Shown here: positions 4,150-27,773 of the stretch, in pieces
Numbering within the stretch: position 1 is the first letter of the stretch
Layout: each line of letters starts with the position of its first letter
Notes under the pieces: generated by a model
The model's input: the letters and a program-made list of their open reading frames with translations, nothing else
Told to the model about the DNA's origin: nothing
Databases searched by the model: none
Origin: Puniceicoccales bacterium
GTDB taxonomy: Bacteria > Verrucomicrobiota > Verrucomicrobiia > Opitutales > JAIRKQ01
Assembly: GCA_031257495.1 (NCBI GenBank)
Contig: JAIRON010000021.1
Span: 1-27,773 of the forward strand
Length of the DNA: 27,773 bases
Direction: 5' to 3'
Translations under genes and position numbers: made by a program

Positions 4150-5568
4150 TTATTTTGAATTGGCAACGAGCTTTTGCAAATATTCCACCGTTCTCTTGAT
4201 GGAAGTATCCTGATCGATCATGTTTTCAACGGTTTTACATGCATGAATAACCGTTCCATGATCCCGCCCACCGAATTCGTTGCCGATGTCGGACAGCGAC
4301 TGGCTCGTCATGATGCGACACAGATACATGGCTACCTGCCGCGGAAAGGCAATATTTGCCGGACGCCGCTTACTCACCATGTCGGCCAGCTTAAGCCGAT
4401 AATACTCTGAAACTTTTTTCTGAACGTGTTCGATGGATACCTGAGTCGCTGCTTCTTCGTGGAAAAGGTCATGCAAAAGATGTTCAACGGCTTCGGTATT
4501 TATGGGGGCATGGGTGAGGGAGGAGTAGCTCGCTAAACGCATCAGCGCCCCCTCCAATTTGCGAACATTACTCGATACACGATTGGCCAGGCACTCCACC
4601 ACGTCCTGGGGGAGATACAGGTTTATTGCAGTCGCTTTTTTAGCCAATATCGCCATCCTTGTTTCAAAATCCGGCGCCTGTATGTCCGTGACAAGCCCCC
4701 ATTGGAAACGGGAAACGAGCCTGCTTTCAAGTTTAGAAATCTCCGATGCGGGCCGATCGCTGCACAGCAAAATTTGTTTTTGCGATTCAAAGAGTTCGTT
4801 AAAAGTGTGGAAAAATTCCTCCTGAATACGCTCTTTACCCGATAGAAAGTGAATATCGTCGATTAGTAGTACGTCGATGTTGCGATATTTTTGCCTAAAA
4901 TTTGGCAAGCTGTTCCGCTGTAGGGAATTTATAAATTCATTGGTGAATTTTTCCGTGGAGGTATACACTACGTGGGTACGGGGAGCCTTTTTCAGGATTT
5001 GGTGGGCAACAGCCTGGATCAAATGTGTTTTCCCCAGCCCTGTGTCGCCGTAGAGAAACAGCGGGTTATAGGCACGCCCGGGGGTACTTGAAACGGCTAT
5101 GCATGCGGCATGAGCCATTTGGTTCCCGGAGCCGACGACAAAATTTTCAAAGGTATTCTTGAGATTAAGTAAACACGTTTCACCCGTTCTTTGTTCCGAC
5201 TTGTACTTCGGTTGTTGCTTCGGTTTTACCGCTTGCTGGGGCTGTGTGGTGTTATCAACGCTGCCATCGCTGCTAACGCGTAGCGCAACGTCGACTTGAT
5301 GCCCAAGGGCAAGGCTGAGCCTCTTGGTAATTACATCCAAATAATTTTCCTGTATCCAGATGAGAGCGAAATCGTTTTGCACACCGAGAACGATCGCTTT
5401 TTCATCTTCCTCAAGTATGGCTATGGGCTCAAACCATATCCTATACACATCCGGCGGGAAAATGTTAGAAAAATCGGACTTCACCGATTCCCAAAGGGGG
5501 GATTTTATTTCTATTTTATCACTGTTCACAGAAAGTTGTTCACAATTGTTGAAAACACACCGTGCCAT
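4150..5568 (-). CDS. dnaA: Chromosomal replication initiator DnaA
   Basis: 472 aa. Walker A GDTGLGKTHL, Walker B/sensor LLIDDIHFLSGKERIQEEFFHTFN, and C-terminal DNA-binding signature VAMYLCRIMTSQSLSDIGNEFGGRDHGTVIHACKTV. Convergent with sufB, 28 bp apart. An internal GTG ~13 codons in is an alternative start. Confidence 0.95.
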   Translation of the reverse strand: MARCVFNNCEQLSVNSDKIEIKSPLWESVKSDFSNIFPPDVYRIWFEPIAILEEDEKAIVLGVQNDFALIWIQENYLDVITKRLSLALGHQVDVALRVSSDGSVDNTTQPQQAVKPKQQPKYKSEQRTGETCLLNLKNTFENFVVGSGNQMAHAACIAVSSTPGRAYNPLFLYGDTGLGKTHLIQAVAHQILKKAPRTHVVYTSTEKFTNEFINSLQRNSLPNFRQKYRNIDVLLIDDIHFLSGKERIQEEFFHTFNELFESQKQILLCSDRPASEISKLESRLVSRFQWGLVTDIQAPDFETRMAILAKKATAINLYLPQDVVECLANRVSSNVRKLEGALMRLASYSSLTHAPINTEAVEHLLHDLFHEEAATQVSIEHVQKKVSEYYRLKLADMVSKRRPANIAFPRQVAMYLCRIMTSQSLSDIGNEFGGRDHGTVIHACKTVENMIDQDTSIKRTVEYLQKLVANSK

Positions 5569-7259: not shown

Positions 7260-7736
7260 TCAAAAATAAGTAGGTTTCTTGCCTAACCAGGCATTGCGAG
7301 CGTTATTTACTTTGGCTTTTGTGAAATTTGCCCACCATAAATCTGTGTCTTGTGCCTCTTGATAGTTAATGTAATGCCAGACATGCTCTGTGTTTTCCGA
7401 TTCGTCCGTGTCTATCTTTTGTACAGTTTCCACACAAATTTTAGCACGGTTACTAAAAGCTTTTAATTGGCTCTCAAATTTTTCTACACCGCTGATATTT
7501 GTAAATTTACCGATGGCCATTTCTCTTGCCTTACTGTCAATTTCGGAGGCAAGTTTATGAAGTTTTCCAGCGGTTTCTGCGTAATCTTTATTGATTTTTT
7601 CAAGCTTTTTCTTTCGTTCTGCGTTATTTGCTTCTTTAATTTTTTCAGCTGCAGCTTCGGCTATTTTTCCCGTGTCACTGATTTTTGTACGAATTGCTTC
7701 GGAATATTCTCGCATTTCTTGTATATGTTTTTGCAT
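7260..7736 (-). CDS. Orphan protein, helical K/E/A-rich N-terminal two-thirds and Trp/aromatic-rich C-terminus (hypothetical)
   Basis: 158-codon ORF, ATG 7734-7736 to TGA 7260-7262. The composition is coding-like, whereas the antisense ORF 7467-7874 is an F/C-rich shadow. No recognisable motif. The start lies 3 nt after the stop of the -1 frame of the upstream ORF. Confidence 0.6.
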   Translation of the reverse strand: MQKHIQEMREYSEAIRTKISDTGKIAEAAAEKIKEANNAERKKKLEKINKDYAETAGKLHKLASEIDSKAREMAIGKFTNISGVEKFESQLKAFSNRAKICVETVQKIDTDESENTEHVWHYINYQEAQDTDLWWANFTKAKVNNARNAWLGKKPTYF

Positions 7737-10300: not shown

Positions 10301-13276
10301 GTGAAAAAAATCGTAAAAATAATAGTATTTATATCGTTATTTGCATTTGGTATTTTCTTATTTCCCTGCCTTCCCTTTGTTCAGAGGCTTATTGTTAAGG
10401 GTATTTTATCTCACTATTTTGATGATGTGCGAATCCCAAAGGCGAGCATCGGGTTTTCCGAAGTAAAGGCGAAAAATGTTTGCATGCGCTACAAAGATAT
10501 GACCATTAGGTTCGCGGATTTGGATGTGAAGTGGAGCTTGAAAGATTGGTTTAGCCAGAAAATCTTAAGTGTAAAAAGTGCGACCCTTGACGGGCTGATG
10601 TTCTCATTTGAAAATGAACCAACGGACGTGTTGTATTTCGAAAAAAAGAAGGCAAGGATTGCTGCTAAATTTGACGTGGACCATGCCTTGAGCAGAGTAT
10701 TTCAGCAATTGAATAAACTTTCCGTGCTCTGCTCAAAGCCTGTCGCCATCGGAAAATTATCAGTAAATGGATCCTTTGATGTGTATGAGAAAATTTTGGG
10801 CGACTTTTCATTTGATGTATTAAATTTTGCTCGAGCTAAAACTGCCGATATTAGTTTCACATTAGATTCAGATTTTACGGGACAGTTGGTCGGTAAGCTT
10901 AAAATTTCCGGGCATTCATCCATTGACCGTGACATATCTGGGGCAATAAATTCAATGTCACTGAATTCGTTTATTGACTCGAAGGATGGCACGGCGAAAA
11001 ATGAAAAATCATTTTTGCTGAATGCAGCTTATGCCAGACCCACGGCCGCAGGCAATTTGCTACAACTGACCTTCATCGATGAGCAGAATTTAGATAAAAT
11101 TCTAGATGCTTCCTGTGAATTTGATGATAAGTCTCAAAACATGCGCTTTAACTTCGATGTTAAACTCACGGATCAGGAAGCCAAATACTTTGCTTTTGGT
11201 GCGGATATAAAACCATTTTTATGCCACTTATGTTCAACTGGAGAGTATAATTTGCCCCAGGCCAATGGATTAGCAAAGTCTTCATTTGAAGCAACATTTT
11301 CCAATGAAATTTTTGATCGTGTAGTACCGGAACTGAAAAACAACATTAAAGTTAGGATTGTTTTTTCCTTGGGTATTTTTGGGGAAAATATTGAGATACA
11401 GTCAATCAAGGGTGAAATTGGCGACGAGGAGAAGAAACAGATCGCTTGTTCCCTCGAATTACCGGACAAATATCGCTTTCATTGGTCAAAAAGCAGTCCT
11501 CTAAAAAGCCTAAATGGTTTGTCCATCAGTATCAATGTCGACAATATAGATACGGCGATTTTGGGGGCAATTTATAGCAATTGGCACTTGCATTCTCTGA
11601 TTAGCGGCAAATGTATTTTGGCATTCAAAAATAATCAGTTAAACATTTACAGTGATGCGAAAAGGTTTCACATGACGCCGATGAGTCTCATCCGTGGCGG
11701 AAATAAAATTTTTGATGAATTTGAGTGTTCCTTTGAACCGAGGATAGTTATCGGAGATGTAATCAAATGTGACATCACGGGTTTAACATGTACGGATAAA
11801 AAAGGTGCGAGTGTTATAGAAGGAAGTTTAACTTTCACATTGGATGATAGTTTCCGTTCCTGTTCGGGAAATTTGGTGTGCGATTTGGCCGATCTCTTAA
11901 AGCAGCCTATTTTTAAAAATGATCTTAAAGTTTCTTCCGGTTTAGCTTCCGGCGATTTCAATTTGGTGCAAAAAGACCATTTTTATACCGGCAATGCCGA
12001 ATTAAAATTGAAAGCGGTAAATTACGGCGAGGACAAAACACCATTGAATGGAAATTTAGACGTTGTTGTTGGTACTACGCCCACAAAAAATGAAATGAAA
12101 TTCAACATTAGCGGCAGCTTACACAATACCATGGATTCCGATGTATTGATAAATGGAATAGTTGGGGTGACAAATAACAAAAAGGAAGCGCTGGACAGTA
12201 ACATCCGCGTGGATATCAGGAGTTCGGTTATTTGTTTGTCAGATATCGTCATTCTTTCCAAATTATTTGCAATGAAGGAGTTTCAGAGCCCTGGCCCACA
12301 GGATGAATTTTTTGCAAAGCGTATCGAGTCGAGCAGAGTATCATTGTGGGATGAAATTTTATTCGATGCTTCCATTCAAGCTAATGCACTATACATGAAC
12401 GATGTTCAGCTCTGTTCTGACCTGTCTTGTGGACTAAAAGTGAACCCCAAGACAATTAATTTGCAAAATATGATGTGTTCCGTTTTTGGTGCATCTTTTT
12501 TAGGTTCGGGTTCGATTACCTTTGCTAGCGATGACTATGAAGGAACGTACAATGCCAAGGCGTATTTTTCCTTATCAGATCTGAGTGCCAGCAAATGCAT
12601 GTTGCTCCTAAAGAGAGACCCAAGGGCTTTTACCGGCATATTTGGGGCGAAGGGGAGTCTTTCCGCTTCCCAGCGTCTTTTGAGCGATTTACTGCCCCAC
12701 ATACAGGGTAAGGTCGATGTGGTTGGGATTAATGGAAATATTTCCCCAATGAAATTGCTTAGTAACACCCAGAAAGGCTTTATAGGGATTGTTGGAATTG
12801 CAGATAGTTTGTTAAATACGAACATTGCAAACGATGTGATACTGGCCTTTGAAAATATACCCTATGACAAGATGTCCACGTCCATAATTCGGCAAAGCAA
12901 TGGGGATATAATTTTAGACTCCTCTATCATCGTAGGGGAAAATATCAGGATGGTGGCAAATGGAATGGTAACTTCAAAGGTGGGCTACCCATTTCAGGAT
13001 TACGGTCTACGAGTCGAGTCACAGATAAGTACGAAAGGAAGCATGACGGAGCTCTTTAGTAGATTGGGATGGACGACTGACAAGGCCTTCGATTATTACG
13101 GATATAGACTGGGGCCGAAAGTCAATATAGGGGGAACGGTTGGAAATCCGAATTTGAGTGATCTCAAAATGTTAATAGGAACAGCAACCACTAAAATACT
13201 AGCGGAACAAGGGACGAATGGCGCACCTCAGCCGATCATCAACCCGGAAACTTTACTAAAAATGTTTCAGAAATAG
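10301..13276 (+). CDS. Large membrane-anchored beta-rich protein, AsmA/TamB-like (tentative)
   Basis: 991 aa from GTG 10301, preceded by GAGGAG (10289-10294, overlapping the tkt stop) at 6-nt spacing. Single N-terminal TM helix (VKIIVFISLFAFGIFLFPCLPFV). The long body alternates polar and hydrophobic residues. The C-terminal region (IIRQSNGDIILDSSIIVGENIRMVANGMVTS...YGLRVESQIS) resembles the AsmA-family C-terminal pattern. The family call is by eye only. Confidence 0.8.
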   Translation: MKKIVKIIVFISLFAFGIFLFPCLPFVQRLIVKGILSHYFDDVRIPKASIGFSEVKAKNVCMRYKDMTIRFADLDVKWSLKDWFSQKILSVKSATLDGLMFSFENEPTDVLYFEKKKARIAAKFDVDHALSRVFQQLNKLSVLCSKPVAIGKLSVNGSFDVYEKILGDFSFDVLNFARAKTADISFTLDSDFTGQLVGKLKISGHSSIDRDISGAINSMSLNSFIDSKDGTAKNEKSFLLNAAYARPTAAGNLLQLTFIDEQNLDKILDASCEFDDKSQNMRFNFDVKLTDQEAKYFAFGADIKPFLCHLCSTGEYNLPQANGLAKSSFEATFSNEIFDRVVPELKNNIKVRIVFSLGIFGENIEIQSIKGEIGDEEKKQIACSLELPDKYRFHWSKSSPLKSLNGLSISINVDNIDTAILGAIYSNWHLHSLISGKCILAFKNNQLNIYSDAKRFHMTPMSLIRGGNKIFDEFECSFEPRIVIGDVIKCDITGLTCTDKKGASVIEGSLTFTLDDSFRSCSGNLVCDLADLLKQPIFKNDLKVSSGLASGDFNLVQKDHFYTGNAELKLKAVNYGEDKTPLNGNLDVVVGTTPTKNEMKFNISGSLHNTMDSDVLINGIVGVTNNKKEALDSNIRVDIRSSVICLSDIVILSKLFAMKEFQSPGPQDEFFAKRIESSRVSLWDEILFDASIQANALYMNDVQLCSDLSCGLKVNPKTINLQNMMCSVFGASFLGSGSITFASDDYEGTYNAKAYFSLSDLSASKCMLLLKRDPRAFTGIFGAKGSLSASQRLLSDLLPHIQGKVDVVGINGNISPMKLLSNTQKGFIGIVGIADSLLNTNIANDVILAFENIPYDKMSTSIIRQSNGDIILDSSIIVGENIRMVANGMVTSKVGYPFQDYGLRVESQISTKGSMTELFSRLGWTTDKAFDYYGYRLGPKVNIGGTVGNPNLSDLKMLIGTATTKILAEQGTNGAPQPIINPETLLKMFQK

Positions 13277-15990: not shown

Positions 15991-18684
15991 TTATTCCGAG
16001 AGGACGGCTTGGGCAGCTGCAAGCCTAGCTACGGGAACGCGATTCGGCGAACAACTAACATAGGTCAATCCATATTGGTGACATAATTTTATGGAATCCG
16101 GGTCGCCACCGTGCTCCCCACAGATGCCAAGTTTAATGTCTGGCCGCGTCGATCTACCACGTTCACAGGCCATCTTTATCAAGCCGCCAACGCCAACGAG
16201 ATCTATGGACGCGAAGGGGTTTGTTTTTAAAATTTCCAAATCAAAGTACTTTGGCAGGAATCCATTGACATCATCCCGACTCATGCCTAGGCATGTTTGG
16301 GTCAAATCGTTGGTACCGAAGCTGAAAAATTGGGCATCCTTGGCAATTTCATCGGCACAGAAACAAGCGCGTGGAATTTCTATCATTGTTCCCACTTTGT
16401 ATTTTATTTGCATGCCCGTTTCCGATATAATTTCTTTGGCTACGCCGTGTATTATATCGGTCTGATTTTTCATTTCCGCGGGAAATGCCGTCAAAGGAAC
16501 CATGATTTCCAGATCGACTTTGACTCCCGCTTGGGTGACGTCGGCTGCCGCTTTAAAGATGGACCGAGCTTGCATGCGTGTGATCTCGGGATAGCTAATT
16601 CCCAAGCGGCAACCGCGGTGTCCAAGCATGGGATTTGCTTCTTTCAGCGAGGCGACGCGCAGCTTCATTTTTTCCTGGTCCACGTGGAGCTTTTGGGAGA
16701 GTAGCTCTATTGCCGTGGCGTCGTGGGGCAAAAATTCATGTAAAGGTGGGTCCAGTAAGCGTATGGTTACGGGAAAGCCTTTCATTTCCTTGAATATGCC
16801 CTCAAAGTCACCCCGTTGCAGCGGTTCAAGTTTTGCTAGAGCTGTTTCCCGCTCCGCCGTGCTGTCGGCCAGGATCATTTCCCTCATGTGGTCGATGCGA
16901 TCATTTTCGAAAAACATATGCTCCGTGCGGCATAGGCCGATGCCTTCAGCTCCCAACTGCATAGCCACCCTAGCTTGTTTGGGACTGTCCGCATTTGTTC
17001 TAATTCCAAGTCGACGATATCCATCTGCCCATTCCATTACGGTGTTAAACAATCTATAAGTATAACTTTTTTCCGGAATGAGACTTCCCTGTAGCACCTG
17101 ATTGACTTCCGAAGGGGCGGTTTCAAGCTTCCCTATGAAAACTTCCCCCGTGGTCCCATCTATGGATATGGGATCACCTTCATTTATAACCGTATCATCG
17201 ATGAAAATCTTTTTTAGGGAGTAGTCTATGCCCAACTTGCCGGCGCCGCATACGCATACCTTGCCCATTTGCCGTGCAACTAGTGCGGCGTGGGAACTTA
17301 CCCCGCCTCTGCTCGTTAAAATTCCCTCCGCGGCGAGCATTCCTCGAATATCTTCTGGGGAAGTTTCTATCCTGCAAAGAATGACATTTTCACCCTTGCC
17401 ATGCATCTCTTCCGCTTTCTTTGCTGAAAAATAGATACTCCCCGAAGCCGCACCCGGTCCGGCGGGAAGGCCGGAAGCGATGCTACGCACCTGTCCCTTG
17501 CTCTTGATGTCAAAGATTGGGACAAGTAGGGTTGATATGGAGTCAGCGGGTATGCGTTGTATGGCAGCCTTTTTATCAATTAGGCCTTCTTCCACCATCT
17601 CTACAGCAATCCTGATAGCGGACAAACCAGTTCTTTTCCCGTTCCTCGTTTGGAGCATGTAAAGTTTATCATTTTCGATGGTGAACTCAAAATCCTGCAT
17701 ATCGCGGAAGTGGGACTCCAGAGTTTTGCATACGTTTACGAGCTGATCATATACGACGGGCATATCCCTTTTTAGATTTGCAATGGGATTTGGCGTGCGG
17801 ATCCCCGCCACAACATCTTCACCCTGAGCATTGATCAAATACTCGCCGTAAAATTCCTTTTTACCAGTGGCCGGATTGCGGGTAAATGCGACGCCCGTGG
17901 CGCAATTATTACCCATGTTGCCAAAAACCATACACTGCACATTAACTGCTGTGCCGTATTCACTCGGTATGCGATATTTTCTCCTATACACTATGGCCCG
18001 CTCATTGTTCCAGGATTCGAAAACCGCGCATATTGCCCCATGTAGCTGTTCGAAGACGTCCTGGGGAAATTCCTTGCCGGTGTGCTCCACTATGATTTTC
18101 TTATAGGATGCAATCAATTCTTTAAGATTATCCGCCGATAATTCGGTGTCCACTTGGACTCGAGCCTTTTCCTTTGCTGCGTCGAGCGCTTCCTCGAATG
18201 GATCCTTCGAATTCTCATCCTTCGCCTTAACGCCGAGGACGACGTCGCCATACATCTGAATAAATCTTCGGTAGCAATCGTAAGCAAAGCGCTCATTGCC
18301 ACTTTTTTTAACTTGCCCCAATACTGTTTCGTCGTTGAGCCCCAAATTTAAAATTGTGTCCATCATGCCTGGCATGGATTCCCGAGCTCCGGAACGAACT
18401 GAAAAGAGAAGAGGATTGTCCCTGTCGCCAAATATTTTTCCTTGTTGCGTTTCCAAATTTTTCACTGCGGCCTTGGTATTTCCCCATATGTCCTGGGAAA
18501 GAGTGTTTCCGTCCTTATAGTATCTGTTGCAAATTTCCGTTGTTATTGTGAAGCCGGGAGGGACGGGCAGGCCTATCCTTGCCATTTCTGCTAGATTTGC
18601 ACCTTTCCCTCCGAGCAATGCTCGCATTGAAGCTTCTCCATCGGTATGCCTGCCGAACTCGTATATATCCTTTGAAATTTCCAT
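15991..18684 (-). CDS. ppdK: Pyruvate, phosphate dikinase
   Basis: 897 aa. N-terminal [26 protein letters not shown], phospho-histidine loop [18 protein letters not shown], and C-terminal PEP/pyruvate domain with [20 protein letters not shown] and [12 protein letters not shown]. Confidence 0.96.
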
Positions 18685-18832
18685 AGTATGCTGGCTGCCA
18701 AAATCAGGAAAAATTTTTGGTTGTCAAATTATTATATGGATTAATGTTGACATTTGATATGATTCAATTTCCCTTGCACTAGTTTTATTTAGAAGAGCAT
18801 TCCCCATATGCCTAAAGCTTCCTTGGGTAGGG

Positions 18833-19882
18833 GTGCTTGATAGGCGTATGATAACAAAATGTGTAGGTGGTTTTTTGTTGGCCATAATTGTAGGTTTTTT
18901 TGTATCTCCAGCTATTTTTGCCTTTTTCAGAAAAAAAAAGTTTAATCAAATTGAAAGGGGGCGTGAAATTATCCGCAACTTAGCTGATTTGCACCGGGAT
19001 AAAAATGATACGCCAACTATGGGAGGAGTGGCGATATTTTTATCGGCGATGATTCCGGTTATATTTCTAGTAAAATTTAATTTATATACAATCCTTGTTT
19101 TGTTTGTCTGTGTGACGCTGGGGTTGTTGGGATTTATAGATGACTTTTTCAAGCTTTCCAAAAAAAATGTTAAAGGGATTTCGGGAAGAAAAAAATTGGC
19201 CATACAATTGGCAGTGTCTACCGTTGTTTTCGTTGTTCTATACCGATTCTCCGGAAGGGATATCATTGAAATGCTGCCATTTTTTGGTTGGTGCCCCAAG
19301 TGGATTTTTATTTTGATCGCATTTTCTTTTGTTTTTTTCGTCCTTGCGGGAACGAGCAATACGGTCAATTTGACGGATGGGTTGGACGGTCTAGCTTCGG
19401 TTTGTATTATTCCCAATTTTATTTTTTTCGCTGCGGCGGCTTGCATCTTCGGTTCGGAAAGGCTATCTTCTCTTTGCGGCTTTGTTTACCTATCTGGAGC
19501 AGGGGAGTTAGCCATCATACTATCTTGCTTTTGCGGAGCACTGTTAGTGTTTTTGTGGTATAATGCACATCCGGCGAGCATTATGATGGGTGATACCGGC
19601 TCGTTGATGTTGGGTGGACTGTTAGCAGTCAGTGCACTGTTGCTTTACATGCCATTTTGCTTGCTATTGACTGGGATTGTTTTCCTGGTTGAGGCTCTGT
19701 CGGACATTATCCAGGTTGGATCGAAAAAAATTAGACACGGAAAAAGAGTGTTTTTAATGGCTCCCATACACCACCACTTTGAGCTTGCTGGTGTTAAGGA
19801 AACAAAGATTGTGGCCCGTGCGGGAATTGTAACTTGGATTGCAACCGCGCTGTGTGCCGCTATTTTGCTCTATGTTAGATGA
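18833..19882 (+). CDS. mraY: Phospho-N-acetylmuramoyl-pentapeptide transferase MraY
   Basis: 349 aa from GTG 18833 (ATG 18848 is an alternative). Motifs TPTMGG, NTVNLTDGLDGLA, HPASIMMGDTGSL and APIHHHFE. Confidence 0.93.
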   Translation: MLDRRMITKCVGGFLLAIIVGFFVSPAIFAFFRKKKFNQIERGREIIRNLADLHRDKNDTPTMGGVAIFLSAMIPVIFLVKFNLYTILVLFVCVTLGLLGFIDDFFKLSKKNVKGISGRKKLAIQLAVSTVVFVVLYRFSGRDIIEMLPFFGWCPKWIFILIAFSFVFFVLAGTSNTVNLTDGLDGLASVCIIPNFIFFAAAACIFGSERLSSLCGFVYLSGAGELAIILSCFCGALLVFLWYNAHPASIMMGDTGSLMLGGLLAVSALLLYMPFCLLLTGIVFLVEALSDIIQVGSKKIRHGKRVFLMAPIHHHFELAGVKETKIVARAGIVTWIATALCAAILLYVR

Positions 19883-21203
19883 TGTTTTTAGTAAGGGCTT
19901 CAGGATCGGGATTTTTGGCGAAGGTGTTTCTGGCAAAGCTGTATCCAAGTGGTGCAATCAAAACAATATCGATTACACCATTTTTAGCGAAGATGGCAGG
20001 GAAATTTTTACAAATGCCATTGCTAGCTCTTTCAATCTAATAATTCGAAGCCCAAGTTTTTTGAATGATCACCTTTGGCTGGCCGTGGCACGGGCAAATG
20101 GGGTGCCATGTATCGGAGAATTGGATTTAGCTGCCAAATTTTGGAAGGGTAAAATAATCGCCGTTACTGGAACGGATGGCAAAACTACAACGGTTGAATT
20201 TCTTAAATATTCTCTGCGTAACGCCGGTTATGAAGCCGTGGCCGTAGGAAATATTGGATTACCGTTCATAGCCGTTGTTGACGATACTGTAAATTTTCCT
20301 GATTCATGGGCAATTGTGGAAGTTAGTTCCTTTCAAGGGCAGCAATTACAAATGATGCATCCTGACTATGTTTTGTGGATAAACTTTGCTCCGGATCATA
20401 TGGATAGTCATCATTCTTTGCATGAATACTTCAGGTCGAAGTACAAGTTAATTGAAGTGGCAAAATTTTGCGATACCGACCACATATTTATCGGCAAGAG
20501 TGTTCTAAATTATGCCAGAAATAATCCTGAATTTGAATCGTTGAATAATGTTACGGTTTGTGAAAAATTCTGCAGTGTGCCTTCCGGATCATGTTTAGAT
20601 ATACCCGTTCAACGGGAAAATTTTGCACTCGTTCAAAACTTTTGGAAAGCCCAAAACTTAGATTTGGACGTACTCAGCGCTTCTGCTGAAACCTTTCGGC
20701 TTCCAAAACACAGGTTGCAGAAAATATGTTCCATCGAAAAAGTTGGCTCAAATGGCGAAAAATTTAATGTGGAATTTTGGAATGATTCGAAGGCCACAAA
20801 TTTCCATTCTTTCAAAGCAGCTGTGGATTCGTTTGATAAAAAATTGATTCTCATTGTTGGAGGAAAGTCGAAGGGGGAAAACATTGAGCAGTATATTGGA
20901 ATTTTATTAAAAAAAGTTAGAATTTTATTCTTGCTTGGAGAGACGGGAAAGATAATTTTCGATGCATTGAATAAGAGTAATTTTATCAAAATGTTTGATT
21001 GTTGCGAATTTTTTTGCGACTATCTGTTTGATTCACAAATTGTTATGCACAATTTAGTAAAACGTGCATTTAGTGTTGCAAAAGGGGAGGACATAGTGTT
21101 ATTATGTCCAGGATTTTCAAGTTTGGACATGTTCAGCGGATATGATCAGCGTGGTTCTTTGTTTGAGGAATATGTTAAGAAATTGAAAGAGGAGAATGTT
21201 TAA
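19872..21203 (+). CDS. murD: UDP-N-acetylmuramoylalanine--D-glutamate ligase MurD
   Basis: Frame of ORF 19839-21203. ATG 19872 (MLDDVFSKGFRIGIFGEGVSGKA...) overlaps the mraY stop by 11 nt and gives a normal N-terminus. ATP-binding IAVTGTDGKTTT; C-terminal WNDSKATN and LIVGGKSKG. Confidence 0.9.
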   Translation: MLDDVFSKGFRIGIFGEGVSGKAVSKWCNQNNIDYTIFSEDGREIFTNAIASSFNLIIRSPSFLNDHLWLAVARANGVPCIGELDLAAKFWKGKIIAVTGTDGKTTTVEFLKYSLRNAGYEAVAVGNIGLPFIAVVDDTVNFPDSWAIVEVSSFQGQQLQMMHPDYVLWINFAPDHMDSHHSLHEYFRSKYKLIEVAKFCDTDHIFIGKSVLNYARNNPEFESLNNVTVCEKFCSVPSGSCLDIPVQRENFALVQNFWKAQNLDLDVLSASAETFRLPKHRLQKICSIEKVGSNGEKFNVEFWNDSKATNFHSFKAAVDSFDKKLILIVGGKSKGENIEQYIGILLKKVRILFLLGETGKIIFDALNKSNFIKMFDCCEFFCDYLFDSQIVMHNLVKRAFSVAKGEDIVLLCPGFSSLDMFSGYDQRGSLFEEYVKKLKEENV

Positions 21204-21221
21204 TTTAAGGGGAACTTTGTT

Positions 21222-22601
21222 ATGAACAAAAATTCAGTTTTTAGTGTGTGTGTAACTTGCGGGATCGTGTTGCTCACAGGATGTTCGGCTACTTACAAAA
21301 ACAGGGGACAAGCCAACAATGTTGCCTATAGCGTCCCTGAGAGCGTAGCCAGGGATGGCATGGAGGTAAGAGTAAGGCCACTCAGGCCATATTGGACCGA
21401 GGATGATTTTTCGGTGGCAAATTTTAGAAGAAGAGGAAGGGCAGAATCTAGGGCTAATGCAGTTACGTTTAGGCCTGAAACTTACGTTGTAAAAAAAGGT
21501 GACACAGTTTATAGCATAGCACGTCGTTTCGGAATTTCTGCGCGGGAAATTATGGATTTGAATAACTTGGATGGGTTTTTACAGCTTCGTGTTGGCCAAG
21601 AAATAAAACTCCCAAGGGAAGATGGAGAAGCAGAGTTTGATCACATTGCTAAAAAATACGGCTTCTCTACGAGAGATACCATCAAGTATACCGTTGAGCG
21701 CGGTGATTCTCTGTTGAAGATAGCTAAAATGCATTCAATGAAAGTGGATGAACTCAAGGAACTTAATGGTTTAACAAGCGATTTTATTAGGGCTGGTCAA
21801 CGGTTGGATGTTTATAGGCCAAATGGTTTTGTGTCAGATATGGACAGCGTTGGCAGCAAAAGAGACATCGTCAAGTATACCGTTGAGCACGGTGACTCTT
21901 TGTCGAAGATTGCCAAAAAGCATTCTATGAAAATTGCTGAACTTATGGAATTAAATGGTTTGTCCGGTGATTTAATTAGAGTTGGCCAGCGATTAGAGGT
22001 TTATAAACCCGATGGTCGGATAGCTAAAAGTGGAACTGCAAAGGTAAAGGCTGATCTGGGTAAAAGGAAAGTAGTGAAGTACGTTGTTAAACAGGGTGAT
22101 TCTCTGTCAAAGATAGCTAAGATGCACTCCATGAAAATTGCCGAGCTTAGGAAGTTAAACACTTTATCTAGCGATACTATCGTGATTGGTCAACAATTGG
22201 ATGTTTACAGTCCAAATGATCCTACATCTTTTAAAGTAAAAGAGACTTCTCCCAAAAAATACACCCTTGATGCAGATGGTCTTTACACCATCCAAGAGGG
22301 TGATTCTTTGGATAAAATTGCCCGTGGTTTTGGAGTTAGTTCCAAAGTTTTGGGAGAAGTCAATGGGGTCGATGATCCGTTAAAACTGCAAGTTGGCAAG
22401 AAATTAGTCATACCTTCCAATGATGCTGTCTCAAAGCCTGTGATTGGGTCTGCAGTCTCTGCTCAAGATCGTGCTAAACCTAGAGTTCCTTCTGAAGATA
22501 GGATGAAGGTTCCTGGCACTGGAAATAATCTTTCCCGAGAAGGGAGTGATGATGATTTTTTTGAAACATTCGATAATATTGAAGTCTTTGAAGTTGATTA
22601 G
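21222..22601 (+). CDS. Lipoprotein with five LysM peptidoglycan-binding modules and an acidic/aromatic C-terminal tail
   Basis: 459 aa. Start preceded by AAGGGG. Lipobox signal MNKNSVFSVCVTCGIVLLTG|C. LysM modules begin at nt 21483, 21687, 21876, 22080 and 22284 (Y.V..GD[ST]L.KIA......ELN.L....I..GQ.L). No M23, amidase or other catalytic domain is visible. The tail is SREGSDDDFFETFDNIEVFEVD. Confidence 0.88.
   Translation: MNKNSVFSVCVTCGIVLLTGCSATYKNRGQANNVAYSVPESVARDGMEVRVRPLRPYWTEDDFSVANFRRRGRAESRANAVTFRPETYVVKKGDTVYSIARRFGISAREIMDLNNLDGFLQLRVGQEIKLPREDGEAEFDHIAKKYGFSTRDTIKYTVERGDSLLKIAKMHSMKVDELKELNGLTSDFIRAGQRLDVYRPNGFVSDMDSVGSKRDIVKYTVEHGDSLSKIAKKHSMKIAELMELNGLSGDLIRVGQRLEVYKPDGRIAKSGTAKVKADLGKRKVVKYVVKQGDSLSKIAKMHSMKIAELRKLNTLSSDTIVIGQQLDVYSPNDPTSFKVKETSPKKYTLDADGLYTIQEGDSLDKIARGFGVSSKVLGEVNGVDDPLKLQVGKKLVIPSNDAVSKPVIGSAVSAQDRAKPRVPSEDRMKVPGTGNNLSREGSDDDFFETFDNIEVFEVD
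21681..22215 (+). repeat. Three tandem, DNA-level similar LysM-coding repeats (periods 189 and 204 bp)
   Basis: The units starting at 21687, 21876 and 22080 share long near-identical stretches. For example, tataccgttgagcGcggtgaTtctCtgtTgaagat matches tataccgttgagcAcggtgaCtctTtgtCgaagat. The encoded sequence is Y[TV]VE/K.GDSLSKIAK.HSMKI.EL..LN.LS.D.I..GQ.L.VY.P. Confidence 0.85.
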
Positions 22602-22604
22602 TTA

Positions 22605-23741
22605 GTGGCCACTTTTTTTGAAAGGTTGCGCAGGTGTGTCTCCCCTGACAAAAGCTTTGCTTGTTTAACCGCGCTGTTCTGTCCGGTTGTTCTTACTTTT
22701 GTTGGGCTGGTTGCATTATCTAGCGCCAGCTTGTCATTTTATAGGAACGAATCGCTGTTTTCTAAGCAATTGTATTGGTTTTTGATTTCCCTGTTTTTTT
22801 TTCTAATTGGAACATTTGTCGATCTTAACTTCATAAGGAAGCACATATCGAAGGTATTGATTGCCTTTTTTGTTTTGTTGATACTGGTGCTGATACCTGG
22901 CATTGGGCATTCCGTTAACGGTTCTCGACGTTGGCTCTTAATCTTTGGCATGAACTTACAAGTTTCCGAATTTGTCAAAATAGTTCTTATTTTGTGGCTA
23001 GCCAATTACATCAGTCTCGCTGAAAGGGAAATTAAGTCCTTTTTCAAAGGTTTTTTTAAACCATTTTTGGTGGCGGCATGCATAAGCGGTCTAGTTTTAC
23101 TCGAACCCGACTACGGAACAGCGATCCTGCTGGGCGGCATAGCCATATCACTGCTGTTTTTGTATGGATCTAAAGTTTTATACATTGGAGGATCGCTGGT
23201 AGTGGCTTTGGTTTCCGTATCGATTTTAATATTTTTTAACCCGGTACGCATGCGCAGGGTCATGGCTTTTATGGACATCGATGCCAATAGGCTTGGGGGA
23301 GCATATCAGTTGTGGCAAGGAATTTTAGGGTTTGTTTCCGGAGGGCTGTGGGGAAGCGGTGTAGGGAATGGTAAGCAGCAATTGGTTTATCTGCCCGAGG
23401 CTCACACGGATTTTATCCTGCCAATCTTGGGTGAAGAGTTTGGTTCCATAGCCGTTGTCTTCGTTTTAATTTTATATTTTGTTTTTTTCATCACTTGCAT
23501 CGTACATGGAATGAGGATCAAATCTATTTATTATTCCGCTGTTTCTTGCGGAATAGCATTGCTGGTTGCTTACCAGGTTGTCATAAATGTTGGTGTTGTC
23601 AGCGGGCTCTTGCCGACAAAGGGCATAGTTTTGCCGTTCATAAGTTACGGCAGGTCCAACTTGCTTGCAATGTATTTTATGCTTGGAATTTTGCTAAATT
23701 GTTTCCTATTTAATCAGGATTTACCCTCAGAAATTGAATAA
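22605..23741 (+). CDS. ftsW: SEDS-family peptidoglycan polymerase FtsW (by dcw context)
   Basis: 378 aa from GTG 22605, 3 nt after the LysM gene stop. Polytopic membrane protein with SEDS blocks QVSEFVKI, LLEPDYGTA, PEAHTDFI and GLLPTKGIVLPFISYG. Confidence 0.9.
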   Translation: MATFFERLRRCVSPDKSFACLTALFCPVVLTFVGLVALSSASLSFYRNESLFSKQLYWFLISLFFFLIGTFVDLNFIRKHISKVLIAFFVLLILVLIPGIGHSVNGSRRWLLIFGMNLQVSEFVKIVLILWLANYISLAEREIKSFFKGFFKPFLVAACISGLVLLEPDYGTAILLGGIAISLLFLYGSKVLYIGGSLVVALVSVSILIFFNPVRMRRVMAFMDIDANRLGGAYQLWQGILGFVSGGLWGSGVGNGKQQLVYLPEAHTDFILPILGEEFGSIAVVFVLILYFVFFITCIVHGMRIKSIYYSAVSCGIALLVAYQVVINVGVVSGLLPTKGIVLPFISYGRSNLLAMYFMLGILLNCFLFNQDLPSEIE

Positions 23742-23742
23742 A

Positions 23743-26700
23743 ATGAAAAAGTACGCCATAGTTTGTGGTGGGACGGGAGGACATATTGCACCAGGAATAG
23801 CCGTTGCCGAGCGGCTCTTTGAAAGAAATAATGAGTGCATTTTGGTCATCAGTAAAAAAGAAGTTGATGGCGTTTTTCTGCGCAAGTATTCCTCCATTAA
23901 AAGCGTAGCGTTTTCCGCTGCACCCTTTTCCAAGAGGCCATTTAAATTTTTAAAATTTCTCTTTTCCCAAACATTTTCCTTTTTTACCGCCCTGTTTTTT
24001 CTTTTAAAAAATAAAATAGATTGTGTCATTGGATTCGGAGGATTTACGAATGTGCCAATCGTTTTAGCGGCGTTTTTTCTGAGAAGGCAAATTGTTCTCC
24101 ACGAATCAAATCGAATTATAGGGAAGAGTGTAAAACTTTTGTCTATGTTTGCAGATACGGTTTATTTGCCACATGAAGTAAAATTTCGATCAAAGTTTCT
24201 AAATAAAAAAGTCAAAAATGTCACCTGTCCACTCAGAAGAGAAATCTTTAAATTTAGCCAATCGGTGGCTAGAAAAAGACTCGGTATGAGCACGGAATCT
24301 CGTCTAATTTTAATCTTGGGAGGAAGTCAAGGGGCGAAAATTTTGACAAACTGGGCAATGGAAAATTGTGAAAATTTTAACAGAAGAAAAGTTCATTTAT
24401 ACTGCATAAGCGGCAGCCACGCTCCCAAAAATTTCGAGGTCAATGGCAATAAATTTATTCCCTTTTGCAATGATATGAATCTGCTCTACAATGCGGCGGA
24501 TATTATCGTAGCCCGTGCCGGTTCGGGGACGATTTTTGAGGCGATGAGGTGCCAAAAAAAGATGGTTCTTGTTCCGTACAAGCGTGCAGCCGATGAGCAT
24601 CAGCTGGCGAATGCCAAATATGCAGAAAAATTGGGATTTGCGACCTACGTTGAGGAACAAGAAATTGATAAGTTATTCGGCAGAGTCATGCAAGCTTTAG
24701 AATCAAAAAATAAACCCCTTCCCGTTACTTCTCACGAAATTGATCCGGCGACGGTGATGATCGGTGACATCGATAAGCCGCAAAACATTCACATGATAGG
24801 AGTTTGTGGAGCTGGGATGGCTCCGTTGGCGATTTATTTGGCTGAAATCGGGTTTAACGTGTATGGCTGGGATGATTTTCCAGACTTAAATGTCAAGGAT
24901 ATGTTGCTGCGGCACAGGGTTATTTTCATGCCGAACAGAGTATTGCCGCGCAAGTGTGATTACGTTGTTGTGTCGAGTGCGATAAATGTGAAAACAGATA
25001 ATTTGTGCCTCCAGGCTAAGGAACTTGGGCTTAGCATTTTCAAGCGTGGTGAATTTCTAGCAAAAATTATCAAGCACAAAAAATTGTTGGCAATCGTCGG
25101 TTCCCACGGCAAAACTTCCGTGTGTGCGCGCATGGCTCAAATTTTGACTTCCTCAGATATGCCTTTTGACTATATCGTCGGTGGGTTTTTCAAGGACAGC
25201 GCTGTTGCTCCGGCGAAGTACAATCCAGGTTCCGAATGGGTCGTTGCGGAGATTGATGAAAGCGATTGTACGATCAGGAATTTTTCACCGGAAGTGACCG
25301 TTGCCCTAAACTATGACGATGATCATATTGTAAACTACCATGGAAGCGAAAGGCTCAAAGAAACTTTCCGAGACTTATTTGCTCGTACGAAGTCAAAGGT
25401 TTACATTACTGCTGATGACGCCGTTTTCGTTCCAATGGCAGCGCTGATGCCTGGAAAATTTTCTATCATGGAAGGGCTACCAAGCAATGATTTCATGGAT
25501 CGCAATAGTCAGATTGCTGATTTCGTTGTTGGAGATTTTTTCGCCATTGAGCGGGATGGAAACATCCATTTCAGTGGGGTGAAGCGCCGCAATGACTTGA
25601 TGTGTGAGGTCGATAATTTGACTTTTGTCCAGGATTATGCCCACCATCCAACGGAAATTAGGGCCATATTGACCTATGCCCGTTCCCACTACCCCAACTA
25701 CAAAATTACCGCTGTTTTCCAGCCACACAGGGTGTCTCGTACGAGGCAGTATTTCGAGGAATTTGCTCGAGTTTTGCAGGGATTCGATGCAGTTATACTA
25801 GTAGAGATATACTGTGCTTTTGAGGAGCGGCTAGGTGGGGTTTCCAGCAAACTTATCTACGATAGGTTGAAAAATGGGAAAAAAATTTTTGTCGAAAACA
25901 TTAACAATTTGGGCAATGAACTGGAAAAATATTGCGCTTCTCTGGATAGGAATAGGAAGCATTTGATTCTGTTCGTTTGTGCCGGTGATTTACTCAAATA
26001 CGGGAGGGCATTTGTGGACGAGTATCGTGCGAGCATAGCTGTGAAGAAACTCGGTGCAGATATTTGTTCCCAAGATGTGCCCCTTGCAACTAAGACCACC
26101 TTCGGTTGTTCCTCCTTGGCAAAAATGTTCACCGAACCAAAGAATGGAGAAGACTTGCTGAAAATTTTACACCTGTGTAAAGACTTAAACCTTGACTATG
26201 TCCTGCTCGGTAGCGGTTCAAACGTGGTGTTCCCCGACGGAATTTACAGCAAAATTATCATAAAATTTAGCGGGGAATATTGGCGACGCATTGAATCTCT
26301 GTCAGAGCAATGTCTGCGTGTTTATGCCGGTGCAAAGTTGAACGATATAGTTGCAACAGCATGGGAAAGAGGTTTTTCCTGTCTCGCATTCTTGGAGTAT
26401 ATTCCGGGAACTATCGGTGGGGCGTTAGTTATGAATGCCGGTGCCCATGGGCATTCAATTTCGGAATTTGTGTCAAAGGTTTGCGTGCTAAACGGTGATG
26501 GAAAGGAGAAGATTCTTTCCAGAGAGGAATGTAATTTTGGCTACCGTTCCTCCGGATTCGAACGCGAATCCATAATTGTTTACGTTGATTTGGAGTTGAA
26601 ACGGACGGATGAAACGGAGAATAATTACAAAAAAATACGCCAATTGACGCAACCGCAAGGAAAAACCTTCGGTTGTATTTTTAAAAATCCAAGGGAAGAT

Positions 26701-26907
26701 TACGCTGGCCGCCTAATAGACGAATGCGGGTTAAAGGGGTATCGCTGTGGTGATGCGGTTATTTCCGAGAAACATGCCAATTTTTTGATGAACGTGAGAA
26801 AAGCATCAGCGAAAGATGTGGAGCATGTTATTGACAATGTGCGCTATGAAGTCTTTGATAGGTTCAATGTGTTTTTGGAAACAGAAGTCCTGTTACTGAG
26901 AAAATGA
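23743..26907 (+). CDS. murG/murC/murB: Tri-functional fusion: MurG glycosyltransferase + MurC UDP-MurNAc--L-Ala ligase + MurB UDP-GlcNAc-enolpyruvate reductase
   Basis: One uninterrupted frame; the ORF track starts at TTG 23734, but ATG 23743 is preferred because it lies 1 nt after the ftsW stop. MurG spans nt ~23743-24700: CGGTGGHIAPGIAVAE, GFGGFTNVPIVLAA...VLHESN, LGGSQGA, ARAGSGTIFEA. MurC spans nt ~24787-26025: IHMIGVCGAGMAPLA, VGSHGKTS, AEIDESD, DYAHHPTE. MurB spans nt ~26074-26904: PLATKTTFG, GSGSNVVF, IPGTIGGALVMNAGAHG, GCIFKNP, SEKHANF. The linkers are ~29 and ~16 aa and contain no stop or frame change. Confidence 0.9.
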   Translation: MKKYAIVCGGTGGHIAPGIAVAERLFERNNECILVISKKEVDGVFLRKYSSIKSVAFSAAPFSKRPFKFLKFLFSQTFSFFTALFFLLKNKIDCVIGFGGFTNVPIVLAAFFLRRQIVLHESNRIIGKSVKLLSMFADTVYLPHEVKFRSKFLNKKVKNVTCPLRREIFKFSQSVARKRLGMSTESRLILILGGSQGAKILTNWAMENCENFNRRKVHLYCISGSHAPKNFEVNGNKFIPFCNDMNLLYNAADIIVARAGSGTIFEAMRCQKKMVLVPYKRAADEHQLANAKYAEKLGFATYVEEQEIDKLFGRVMQALESKNKPLPVTSHEIDPATVMIGDIDKPQNIHMIGVCGAGMAPLAIYLAEIGFNVYGWDDFPDLNVKDMLLRHRVIFMPNRVLPRKCDYVVVSSAINVKTDNLCLQAKELGLSIFKRGEFLAKIIKHKKLLAIVGSHGKTSVCARMAQILTSSDMPFDYIVGGFFKDSAVAPAKYNPGSEWVVAEIDESDCTIRNFSPEVTVALNYDDDHIVNYHGSERLKETFRDLFARTKSKVYITADDAVFVPMAALMPGKFSIMEGLPSNDFMDRNSQIADFVVGDFFAIERDGNIHFSGVKRRNDLMCEVDNLTFVQDYAHHPTEIRAILTYARSHYPNYKITAVFQPHRVSRTRQYFEEFARVLQGFDAVILVEIYCAFEERLGGVSSKLIYDRLKNGKKIFVENINNLGNELEKYCASLDRNRKHLILFVCAGDLLKYGRAFVDEYRASIAVKKLGADICSQDVPLATKTTFGCSSLAKMFTEPKNGEDLLKILHLCKDLNLDYVLLGSGSNVVFPDGIYSKIIIKFSGEYWRRIESLSEQCLRVYAGAKLNDIVATAWERGFSCLAFLEYIPGTIGGALVMNAGAHGHSISEFVSKVCVLNGDGKEKILSREECNFGYRSSGFERESIIVYVDLELKRTDETENNYKKIRQLTQPQGKTFGCIFKNPREDYAGRLIDECGLKGYRCGDAVISEKHANFLMNVRKASAKDVEHVIDNVRYEVFDRFNVFLETEVLLLRK

Positions 26908-27773
26908 GAGATGTTATAATTTTATCCGGTGGTGAACGCTCATCTGAGCGCGACGTTTCCCTGCGTTCAGGAAGGGCACTTTACGATTCGCTGTCGAAAA
27001 ATTTTAGGACGGAGCTGATTGTTTACGATAAGGATGAGCTGCCGAGCGTCGTTGTCGAGCGTCGCGACGCGATAATATTCCCCATAACGCTCGGTGAATT
27101 TGGCGAAGATGGGGGCTTGCAGGCCTTGATGGACAATGCAGGCCTATGCTACGTTGGTTCCGGTAGAGAGGCTAGCGCTCTGTGCATGGACAAATTTGCC
27201 ACCAAAGCCACCGTTGCAGAGAGGAGCGTTCCCGTTATCGATGGCGTGAAATTTTCCGTCAAAGGTGGCAAAGCGATGGACTTGAGCAAGGGGTTCCGTT
27301 TTACCGGTGATTGCGTTTTAAAACCAAACGATCGTGGTAGCAGCATTGGGGTAAAAAAGGTAGCTGGAGAAAATATCGATGCTGCACTTATCAATGCCCA
27401 TGACGGTGAATTTTTGCTCGAAAAAAATATTGTTGGCAAAGACTTGACAGTTGGGGTGTTGGATGGTCGGGCGTTGGAAGTTGTAGAAATCTTGCCGAAG
27501 CATGGCTTCCTTGACTACGACAGTAAATATACGGTAGGAGCAGCGGATAAAATTTGCCCTGCCCCCATTAGTCCCGGAGCAACAAAAAAAGTGAAAACGT
27601 ATGCCGAGACTGCGTACCGTGCCTGTGGTTGCCGCGATTGGGCTCGCGTCGATTTCATGATTAATGATTCCGGCGATGTGTTTTTTCTGGAAGTTAATAC
27701 GATCCCCGGTATGACCCAGACCAGCTTTTATCCCCTGAGTGCGCAAACGGCAGGAATTTCCTTCGATGATCTG
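26904..27773 (+). CDS. ddl: D-alanine--D-alanine ligase (3'-truncated by window end)
   Basis: Not in the ORF track because no stop is reached. ATG 26904 overlaps the fusion-gene stop (ATGA). Translation is MRDVIILSGGERSSERDVSLRSG...GEDGGLQALMD...CMDKFATK...VKPNDRGSSIGV...WARVDFMINDSGDVFFLEVNTIPGMT, and 290 codons stay open to nt 27773. The minus-strand ORFs 27149-27439 and 27318-27746 are shadows. Confidence 0.92.
   Translation, partial: MRDVIILSGGERSSERDVSLRSGRALYDSLSKNFRTELIVYDKDELPSVVVERRDAIIFPITLGEFGEDGGLQALMDNAGLCYVGSGREASALCMDKFATKATVAERSVPVIDGVKFSVKGGKAMDLSKGFRFTGDCVLKPNDRGSSIGVKKVAGENIDAALINAHDGEFLLEKNIVGKDLTVGVLDGRALEVVEILPKHGFLDYDSKYTVGAADKICPAPISPGATKKVKTYAETAYRACGCRDWARVDFMINDSGDVFFLEVNTIPGMTQTSFYPLSAQTAGISFDDL

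Follow-up and report, generated by a model that had tools for sequence, protein, structure and literature searches.

One reading frame for MurG, MurC and MurB in Puniceicoccales bacteria: an undescribed but recurrent extension of known Mur fusions

A decades-old debate concerns the question of whether the cytoplasmic Mur enzymes of peptidoglycan synthesis assemble at the membrane into a complex with MurG as its scaffold. Chimeras of two enzymes constitute the main genomic argument for such a complex, and the MurE-MurF fusion its main structural entry point. A contig of 27,773 nucleotides (nt) from a Puniceicoccales bacterium (JAIRON010000021.1, in its full length referred to as the window) raises the question of whether three of these enzymes may be united in one chain. 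It contains an open reading frame (ORF) which the initial annotation had read as MurG, MurC and MurB in this order (G-C-B). With a probability of roughly 0.8 we consider it a genuine gene for one polypeptide which carries MurG, a divergent Opitutia-type MurC and MurB end to end. Such a chain joins the final, membrane-associated step (MurG) to the second and third steps of the pathway (MurB and MurC), which widens the argument from pairs to a triple.

The single frame of about 1054 codons harbouring the motif sets of all three enzymes in the described order was borne out by the ORF list as well as by Pfam and NCBIfam scans. In the ORF list it appears as one forward-strand ORF (23734..26907) which comprises 1057 residues if read from a TTG. 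Since all orthologues begin with MKKY, MKTY or MRKY, the true start is the ATG at 23743. The TAA of ftsW (23739-41) is separated from this ATG by one A, and the TGA of the fusion gene (26905-07) overlaps with the ATG of ddl (26904) as ATGA, both exactly as initially described. No stop codon or frameshift is present at either junction in the window sequence. The computed product of 1054 amino acids (aa) has a pI of 8.9 and a mass of ~119 kDa, which lies within the range of ~115-120 kDa estimated beforehand. A hidden Markov model scan, proposed by the initial annotation as a check, detected all domains in the claimed order, although one of them, Mur_ligase_M, stays under its Pfam cut-off. The remaining ones are Glyco_transf_28 (aa 5-141, 81.7 bits vs a cut-off of 26.2) and Glyco_tran_28_C (aa 189-327, 96.0 vs 22) in the MurG part, Mur_ligase (aa 348-446, 33.5 vs 21) and Mur_ligase_C (aa 615-717, 52.3 vs 28.4) in the MurC part, and FAD_binding_4 (aa 795-922, 65.6 bits) and MurB_C (aa 961-1051, 97.8 bits) in the MurB part. 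The latter also exceeds the cut-off of the MurB equivalog TIGR00179 (208.4 vs 144.5).

The same architecture was found in relatives when it was searched for as the initial annotation had suggested. A word-indexed search of 5.8 billion proteins yielded four proteins of 1054 aa with all three domain sets (91, 73, 72 and 69 % identity; P0001-P0004), and a fifth orthologue of 1053 aa (P0219) is present in the same 90 % cluster. These five, 69-91 % identical and 1053-1054 aa long, put the fusion in at least five further metagenome-assembled genomes (MAGs) of Puniceicoccales. Alignment of the window protein with P0001-P0004 requires not a single indel, the junction included. Between more distant pairs of fused proteins the identity of the junction segment falls to 33-53 %, and the junction codons vary between genomes yet remain in frame. 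For P0003 as well as for P0004, the JGI and Logan assemblies yielded identical sequences, and the window protein itself is already public as MDR0595465.1, named only as MurB. The occurrence of the same 1054-aa frame in independent assemblies of related genomes implies that it is neither due to chance nor to a local sequencing error. Throughout the fused clade the frame is intact and the family motifs are kept in each domain. The codes Kf353 and Gsp477 denote gut metagenomes of the lower termites Kalotermes and Glyptotermes (PMC11707648), and the shared naming scheme suggests a termite-gut origin also for the window MAG and for Cc175, Po218 and Gx481.

The MurG module contains the GGTGGH loop (9-14), HESN (120-123), GGSQGA (193-198), RAGSGT..E266 and H286-Q287..N290. 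These motifs align with those of the solved MurGs from E. coli, A. baumannii and P. aeruginosa, and their columns are invariant across independent, unrelated triples; their functional roles we take to be those assigned in the E. coli MurG structures. In the structure model described below this part superposes on 1nlm/1f0k with template modelling (TM) scores of 0.66-0.71. The MurG lineage is divergent; its free-standing MurGs are ~50 % identical. E. coli MurG binds the membrane via its N-domain. A long helix of the N-domain rich in Phe, Leu and Lys is a candidate membrane-association surface in the window protein, a role which we presume from the E. coli MurG structure.

In the MurC module the P-loop GSHGKTS (453-459), AEIDESD (502-508), NYDDDH (523-528), RRND (615-618) and DYAHHPTE (631-638) align to 4hv4/2f00 and are invariant in alignments A1 and A3, the latter being the alignment and profile of ten triple fusions; they are followed by FQPHRVSRT (659-667). 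The fold matches that of H. influenzae MurC (1p3d) with a TM score of 0.80-0.82 over ~466 columns. Alignments of this part with PDB entries break into two stretches, and the GxHNxxN motif of MurC is altered to DFxxRN. The shortened, atypical second half of the central domain is a trait of the whole order and not of the fusion. This agrees with a published remark that by TIGRFAM no authentic MurC is found in the class Opitutae, where the N-terminus of the long "MurB" proteins consists of a divergent Mur-ligase domain (PMC4803751). As judged from its sequence, we predict the MurC part to be a divergent UDP-MurNAc (UDP-N-acetylmuramic acid):L-Ala ligase of the Opitutia type. Addition of L-Ala has been demonstrated only for the Verrucomicrobium spinosum homologue, whose MurC part is more typical (PMC4803751).

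The MurB module was aligned to 4pyt, 3tx1, 9dtk and 2gqt, and in the model it matches 1hsk/3tx1/2gqt with TM scores of 0.86-0.88. The catalytic residues of E. coli MurB are R159, S229 (the general acid) and E325, and 1uxy represents the S229A mutant. In the window protein Y934-R935, C978 at the general-acid position and E1048 are present. This position is occupied by Cys in the window protein and in its 91 % identical relative P0001, and by Ser in P0002-P0004. The 54 motifs in the fetched loci include 22 with Cys vs 31 with Ser, and the crystallised Thermus MurB (2gqt) has Cys as well (AGCAFKNP). C978 was considered as an inactivating change and dropped since Cys is a common natural variant; MurB with Cys978 is probably functional.

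Nei-Gojobori estimates of the ratio of nonsynonymous to synonymous substitution rates (dN/dS) were obtained for the window versus the other fused loci. Compared with L004 (dS 0.28) the ratios are 0.10 for MurG, 0.14 for MurC and 0.20 for MurB, while the MurG tail plus junction reaches 0.27 and the joint between MurC and MurB 0.42. Compared with L005 and L006, where synonymous sites are saturated (dS > 1.5), the domains range from 0.04 to 0.14 and the MurG-MurC junction segment from 0.26 to 0.35. All three modules are under purifying selection (domain dN/dS 0.04-0.20). An AlphaFold2 model, built on a composite alignment of 134 rows, has a mean predicted local distance difference test (pLDDT) score of 92.6 with no residue below 50, and a predicted TM score (pTM) of 0.78. 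The sole dip in pLDDT, to 71-81, concerns aa 321-350. The model shows one compact chain without a disordered linker, in which the C-terminal helix of MurG (335-343) is followed by the first strand of MurC (348-352), and a continuous helix (750-770) leads into MurB. For three enzymes in a chain of 1054 residues, a pTM of this size suggests a defined arrangement of the domains as opposed to beads on a string. A Foldseek search against the PDB revealed no solved chain which spans more than one of the three parts. The linkers described initially are indeed short and free of stops and frameshifts, but they turned out to be mostly native enzyme termini, namely the C-terminal helix of MurG (aa 335-343) and the N-terminal helix of MurB.

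How the fusion arose can be read from the loci of relatives. The locus scan covered one genome per GTDB species, with domains of stop-to-stop ORFs assigned by phmmer. Among the best 80 loci fused triples occur in three only (L004-L006); all other Opitutales/Puniceicoccales loci among them have a separate murG, in most cases of 343-373 aa, with a fused murC-murB (~710-770 aa) behind it. L003, which represents the nearest unfused lineage (51 % identity), shows the synteny of the window: the pyruvate-phosphate dikinase (PPDK) gene on the minus strand, mraY, murD, the LysM gene, ftsW, murG, murC-murB and ddl. Neighbour-joining (NJ) trees for the MurG part and for MurC-MurB have congruent topologies: both recover the fused clade as monophyletic with 100 of 100 bootstraps, place it as sister to an unfused clade and nest it among further unfused lineages. 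The free MurGs closest to the MurG part of the window share contigs with the closest MurC-MurB proteins, which, together with the congruent trees and the monophyly, argues for one in-situ fusion in the ancestor of the clade. The MurC-MurB fusion is ancestral in this group and only the MurG-MurC joint is new. A fusion of MurC and MurB was already known from Verrucomicrobia (PMC4803751, PMC10214165).

In relatives without the fusion the end of murG and the start of murC-murB share 4-14 nt, read in different frames. The overlap amounts to 14 nt (ATGTTACAAAATAA) in four sister loci, to 8 nt in L011 and to 4 nt (ATGA) in L009 and L015. A MAFFT alignment puts the fused sequences at +2 nt with respect to the sister in the overlap zone, which corresponds to the shift needed to unite both frames. 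Because the overlap region is too diverged we claim only a small frame-restoring indel and do not name the exact mutation. A single event of this kind in the ancestor of the clade presumably created the triple. The initial proposal of two lost stop codons has to be abandoned, as MurC-MurB is ancestral and the out-of-frame overlap of 4-14 nt needed a frame-restoring indel. The MurG-MurC junction of about four residues is the former overlap of the murG stop with the murC-murB start. The fused clade retains the MurG tail (IDPATVMIGDI in the window matches ENPVTKIIKDV in the sister), which is homologous to the C-terminus of free MurG in the sister lineages and presumably resembles the C-terminal helix of E. 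coli MurG. Via D344-K345-P346-Q347 this tail passes into NIHMIGVCGAGM, the native first strand of MurC. A single indel suffices to turn an out-of-frame stop/start overlap in the dcw cluster into a fusion, and this step has been taken repeatedly.

From a gene string with ftsW and ddl one polypeptide would be made, which would stay uncleaved with all three activities working. The N-domain of MurG would fix the chain to the membrane on its inner face, and MurB and MurC would be held at a ratio of 1:1:1 with MurG where MraY and MurG produce lipid I and lipid II. If the MurG part binds the membrane, MurC and MurB, and with them UDP-MurNAc formation and the addition of L-Ala as the initial annotation proposed, would of physical necessity be tethered there, too. 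Since MurB and MurC catalyse consecutive steps, a local hand-over of UDP-MurNAc is conceivable. The MurC-MurB protein of V. spinosum complements E. coli strains mutated in murB or in murC, remains uncleaved and is essential (PMC4803751; PMC12283558), a precedent which renders an uncleaved multifunctional product plausible here.

Several observations weigh against this reading. The MurG and MurC parts remain under the cut-offs of their NCBIfam equivalogs (TIGR01133, 178.1 vs 250.25 bits; TIGR01082, 243.5 vs 335.1 bits). Mur_ligase_M (aa 452-561) reaches 21.9 bits vs a Pfam cut-off of 24 and covers 127 of 200 profile positions, and the second half of the MurC central domain is ~48 residues shorter than in solved MurCs. 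The pTM is the one measure of the inter-domain geometry. For the two-domain enzyme of V. spinosum MurB activity could not be demonstrated in vitro (PMC4803751). Finally, substrate channelling cannot explain the MurG-MurC joint because the two steps are not consecutive, so that this joint can serve only co-localisation, stoichiometry or stability; the same argument has been made for MurG-MurC chimeras (PMC10214165).

In a rival reading the fusion is real but selectively neutral. It would be an easy accident, tolerated since the enzymes are side by side anyway and maybe fixed by drift in a host-associated lineage, with neither a channelling nor a scaffolding advantage. Consistent with this, the gene overlap makes fusion a one-step event, at least three other lineages acquired the architecture independently while other odd Mur fusions abound, the junction shows a dN/dS of 0.26-0.35 vs 0.04-0.10 for MurG and MurC, and MurG and MurC do not act in consecutive steps (PMC10214165). 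In contrast, the fused state and the exact length have been kept while synonymous sites became saturated (dS > 1.5), none of the five aligned sequences of 1054 aa has an indel at the junction, and the model predicts a fixed rather than a floppy arrangement (pTM 0.78). As these points do not exclude neutrality, we regard a tolerated fusion as a serious alternative, possible albeit somewhat doubtful. A kinetic benefit and mere tolerance of already associating enzymes both stand as readings. In the opposite direction, the chain might be a rigid, obligatory and linker-less assembly which covalently reproduces the interfaces of the Mur complex and in which MurB hands UDP-MurNAc directly to MurC at the membrane beneath MurG. 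This we deem unlikely; if true, it would be in this 119-kDa protein that the docking of early cytoplasmic steps onto the lipid II synthase could first be seen directly in a structure. The conserved compact chain represents a practical natural construct, unusually rigid-looking, for testing the hypothesis of a Mur complex.

It is improbable that the ORF gives rise to several products, with MurC-MurB or MurB set free by internal starts or proteolysis. A GGGAGG 6 nt upstream of an in-frame GTG (26014) is present at the MurC-MurB joint (window 26002-26016), and a conserved Met (M351) is located at the start of the MurC part. Yet, the site resembling a Shine-Dalgarno (SD) sequence is missing in L004-L006, the GTG is replaced by GTC in L005 and L006, the M351 codon is not preceded by an SD-like sequence, and the junctions are predicted to be structured as opposed to exposed loops. 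The SD signal is uninformative in any case because real gene starts in the window mostly lack it, too. Internal initiation at GGGAGG plus GTG was dropped since it is not conserved in L004-L006; the GGGAGG is probably a by-product of Gly-Arg codons.

Slightly less probable still is that one module, most likely the divergent MurC part or MurB with its Cys, has become an inactive relic whose activity is supplied by a gene outside the window. The MurC and MurG scores under the equivalog cut-offs, that of Mur_ligase_M under its Pfam cut-off, the alteration of GxHNxxN to xDFxxRN, the replacement of Ser by C978 in the window and the lack of an authentic MurC by TIGRFAM in the class Opitutae (PMC4803751) would be in line with it. 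Nonetheless, purifying selection acts on all modules, no variation is seen in the P-loop, Mg/ATP and UDP-MurNAc motifs, and the MurC fold matches that of ligand-bound 1p3d. Furthermore, the atypical MurC is common to the whole order, where it is the sole MurC-like gene of the dcw locus, and Cys occurs at the MurB acid site in 22 of the 54 motifs and in the Thermus enzyme. The last alternative, an artefact of this metagenome-assembled contig by which murG and murC-murB were joined through a spurious indel, is effectively refuted: although the genes of relatives overlap out of frame, so that one wrong base could give the semblance of a fusion, at least six distinct sequences (69-91 % identity, from different samples and assemblers) show the same frame, with junction codons that differ between genomes and in a clade that is monophyletic.

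That two-enzyme Mur fusions exist, as the initial annotation stated, agrees with the literature: the pairs MurE-MurF, MurC-Ddl, MurC-MurB, MurG-MurC and MurD-FtsW are listed in a survey of Mur chimeras from 2023 (PMC10214165), and the MurB/C protein of V. spinosum has been characterised (PMC4803751). The survey covers pairs only and the word "triple" is absent from it (PMC10214165). The initial annotation named no described protein which joins MurG to two early cytoplasmic steps, and in the library we searched no paper describes a G-C-B triple under any obvious name. The window fusion shows what defines a natural Mur chimera, i.e. adjacent dcw genes in one ORF, complete enzymes and conservation within a lineage. 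The triple is not unique. An exhaustive HMMER search of 1.84 billion cluster representatives, of which the best 150 matches were inspected, disclosed three more G-C-B clusters without relation to this one: P0068 (from Verrucomicrobiia MAGs, 1155 aa), P0138 (sibling P0217, 1204 aa) and P0198 (1210 aa). Their module order was confirmed by Pfam. Their identity to the window protein is only 26-34 %. They stem from fusion events of their own and are undescribed in the searched literature, so that among these 150 matches there are at least four independent G-C-B lineages, the window clade included. A profile search with the ten triples (A3) returned the same candidates and missed P0068; it is uninformative on further triples. 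The G-C-B triple is thus an undescribed but recurrent extension of known Mur fusions, with its most compact version in the termite-gut clade. Given that G-C pairs, C-B pairs and the G-C-B gene order were already known, it is expectable, and useful rather than astonishing.

In the kind and order of their three modules the other triples equal the window protein, and one of them (P0205) is likewise encoded between ftsW and ddl. In contrast to the window protein their linkers are longer (~35-100 aa) and their MurC central domain is canonical. P0068 and P0205 (MFA7004099.1 and MFA6560814.1) both comprise 1155 aa. The P0205 locus is a complete dcw cluster (murF, mraY, murD, LysM, ftsW, G-C-B, ddl, ftsQ, ftsA, ftsZ) which two contigs, each longer than 300 kb and assembled independently, contain. 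In the 90 % cluster of P0068 triples of 1155 aa occur alongside MurC-MurB members of 744-837 aa, for which reason the fusion in this lineage may be polymorphic or of very recent date, unless the genes were called inconsistently. NCBI names such triples after a single domain ("UDP-N-acetylmuramate dehydrogenase"); pathway reconstructions of these MAGs may consequently, and wrongly, call murG and murC missing.

The closest characterised system is the MurB/C protein of V. spinosum and other Verrucomicrobiota, which corresponds to aa 348-1054 of the window protein, with MurC preceding MurB, and belongs to the same phylum-level lineage (PMC4803751; PMC12283558). Its usual context is ftsW-murG-murB/C-ddl, whereas here MurG stands covalently in front. 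For the V. spinosum protein a linker of ~100 residues is reported, while the joint in the window protein is essentially linker-less and predicted as a continuous helix. Moreover, the MurC part is here of the divergent Opitutia type missed by TIGRFAM. The MurG-MurC chimeras, mainly of Actinobacteria such as Cellulomonas gilvus, resemble the window protein in that MurG is N-terminal to MurC and non-consecutive steps are joined; they have been taken as support for a Mur complex scaffolded by MurG (PMC10214165; PMC4929429). They lack, however, a MurB module and belong to a different phylum, and those retrieved here (P0046-P0051) are of independent origin since they are only 25-28 % identical to the window protein. 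MurE-MurF of Bordetella pertussis is a natural linker-less head-to-tail fusion in which one C-terminus packs on the next N-terminus, and it has served as a structural access to the proposed complex (PMC10214165; PMC6420597). Unlike G-C-B, it consists of two modules, both ligases of consecutive steps, without a membrane-associated partner. MurC-Ddl of Chlamydia trachomatis, from the same PVC (Planctomycetes-Verrucomicrobia-Chlamydiae) superphylum, joins non-consecutive steps as the window protein does, but its MurC partner is Ddl, while here ddl is a separate gene overlapping the stop codon of the fusion.

Further Mur architectures emerged from the searches. MurC-MurB-Ddl triples exist (P0183 and P0193, ~1070 aa). 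MurG-MurB proteins without an intervening MurC (P0040, P0044 and P0126, ~690-700 aa) have both domain sets complete, an arrangement which the published list of Mur chimeras does not include. Among P0183, P0193, P0166, P0052-P0059, P0338 and P0058 there are also IspD-MurC, MurC with an AMP-binding/PCP/thioesterase module resembling nonribosomal peptide synthetases (~1260 aa), FtsW-MurG (755 aa) and a MurG of 720 aa which bears a POTRA_1 (FtsQ-type) domain.

Table 1. Features of the fusion gene, its modules and its neighbours in the window (nt positions in the window; aa numbering of the fusion protein).
Feature	Position (nt)	Strand	aa	Basis or remark
murG-murC-murB fusion gene	23743..26907	+		1054 codons + TGA; ORF list, Pfam/NCBIfam scans, orthologues of identical length
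MurG domain	23743..24771	+	1-343	PF03033, PF04101, structure alignments, fold match
Phe/Leu/Lys-rich helix of the MurG N-domain (PFKFLKFLFSQTFSFFTALFFLLK)	23938..24009	+	66-89	helix in model; sequence
MurG-MurC junction D344-K345-P346-Q347	24772..24783	+	344-347	fused vs unfused DNA, three-frame comparison; translation
MurC-like Mur-ligase domain	24784..26025	+	348-761	Pfam N + C domains, fold match
MurB domain, short (type II-like) form	26026..26904	+	762-1054	PF01565, PF02873, TIGR00179, alignments
C978 codon, MurB general-acid serine position (FGCIFKNP)	26674..26676	+	978	
mraY	18833-19882	+		Pfam; upstream in same gene string
murD	19839 or 19872 to 21203	+		Pfam; upstream in same gene string
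5x LysM protein	21222-22601	+		Pfam; between murD and ftsW
ftsW	22605..23741	+		PF01098; upstream neighbour of fusion gene
ddl	26904..27773, continues beyond window end	+		PF07478 + PF01820

The upstream string mraY-murD-LysM (18833..22601) has identical synteny in the loci L001, L003 and L086. The listed TTG start of murD (19839) entails an overlap of 44 nt with mraY; the ATG at 19872 (MLDDVF…) reduces it to ~11 nt, as in relatives, and is the likelier start. The LysM protein comprises five LysM repeats and a lipoprotein-like N-terminus (…LLTGCSATY). Its gene is located between murD and ftsW in all verrucomicrobial dcw loci inspected (L001, L003, L084 and L086), a distant Verrucomicrobiia locus included, and LysM genes are also marked in these neighbourhoods in PMC4803751 (fig. 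7B). In the fused clade the dcw cluster is a stump (window 15991-18833; relatives L001 and L086). The PPDK gene on the opposite strand abuts mraY, with no mraZ/W, ftsL/I or murE/F there, and behind ddl the relatives carry unrelated genes on the minus strand in place of ftsQ-ftsA-ftsZ. The independent Verrucomicrobiia triple locus L084 retains murF…ftsQAZ.

Outside the gene string, a forward-strand ORF of 991 aa (10301-13276) has no Pfam match at E<=0.01; a counterpart of 990 aa at the same position in the sister locus L003 indicates a conserved, uncharacterised protein. The ORFs 14-940 (+) and 7260-7736 (-) have no Pfam matches either. As dnaA adjoins sufC-like and sufB/D genes (window 4150-5568 (-) and 1915-4121 (+)), the window is probably located near the chromosomal replication origin. 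The cumulative GC skew rises across most of the window, with a dip at ~15-19 kb.

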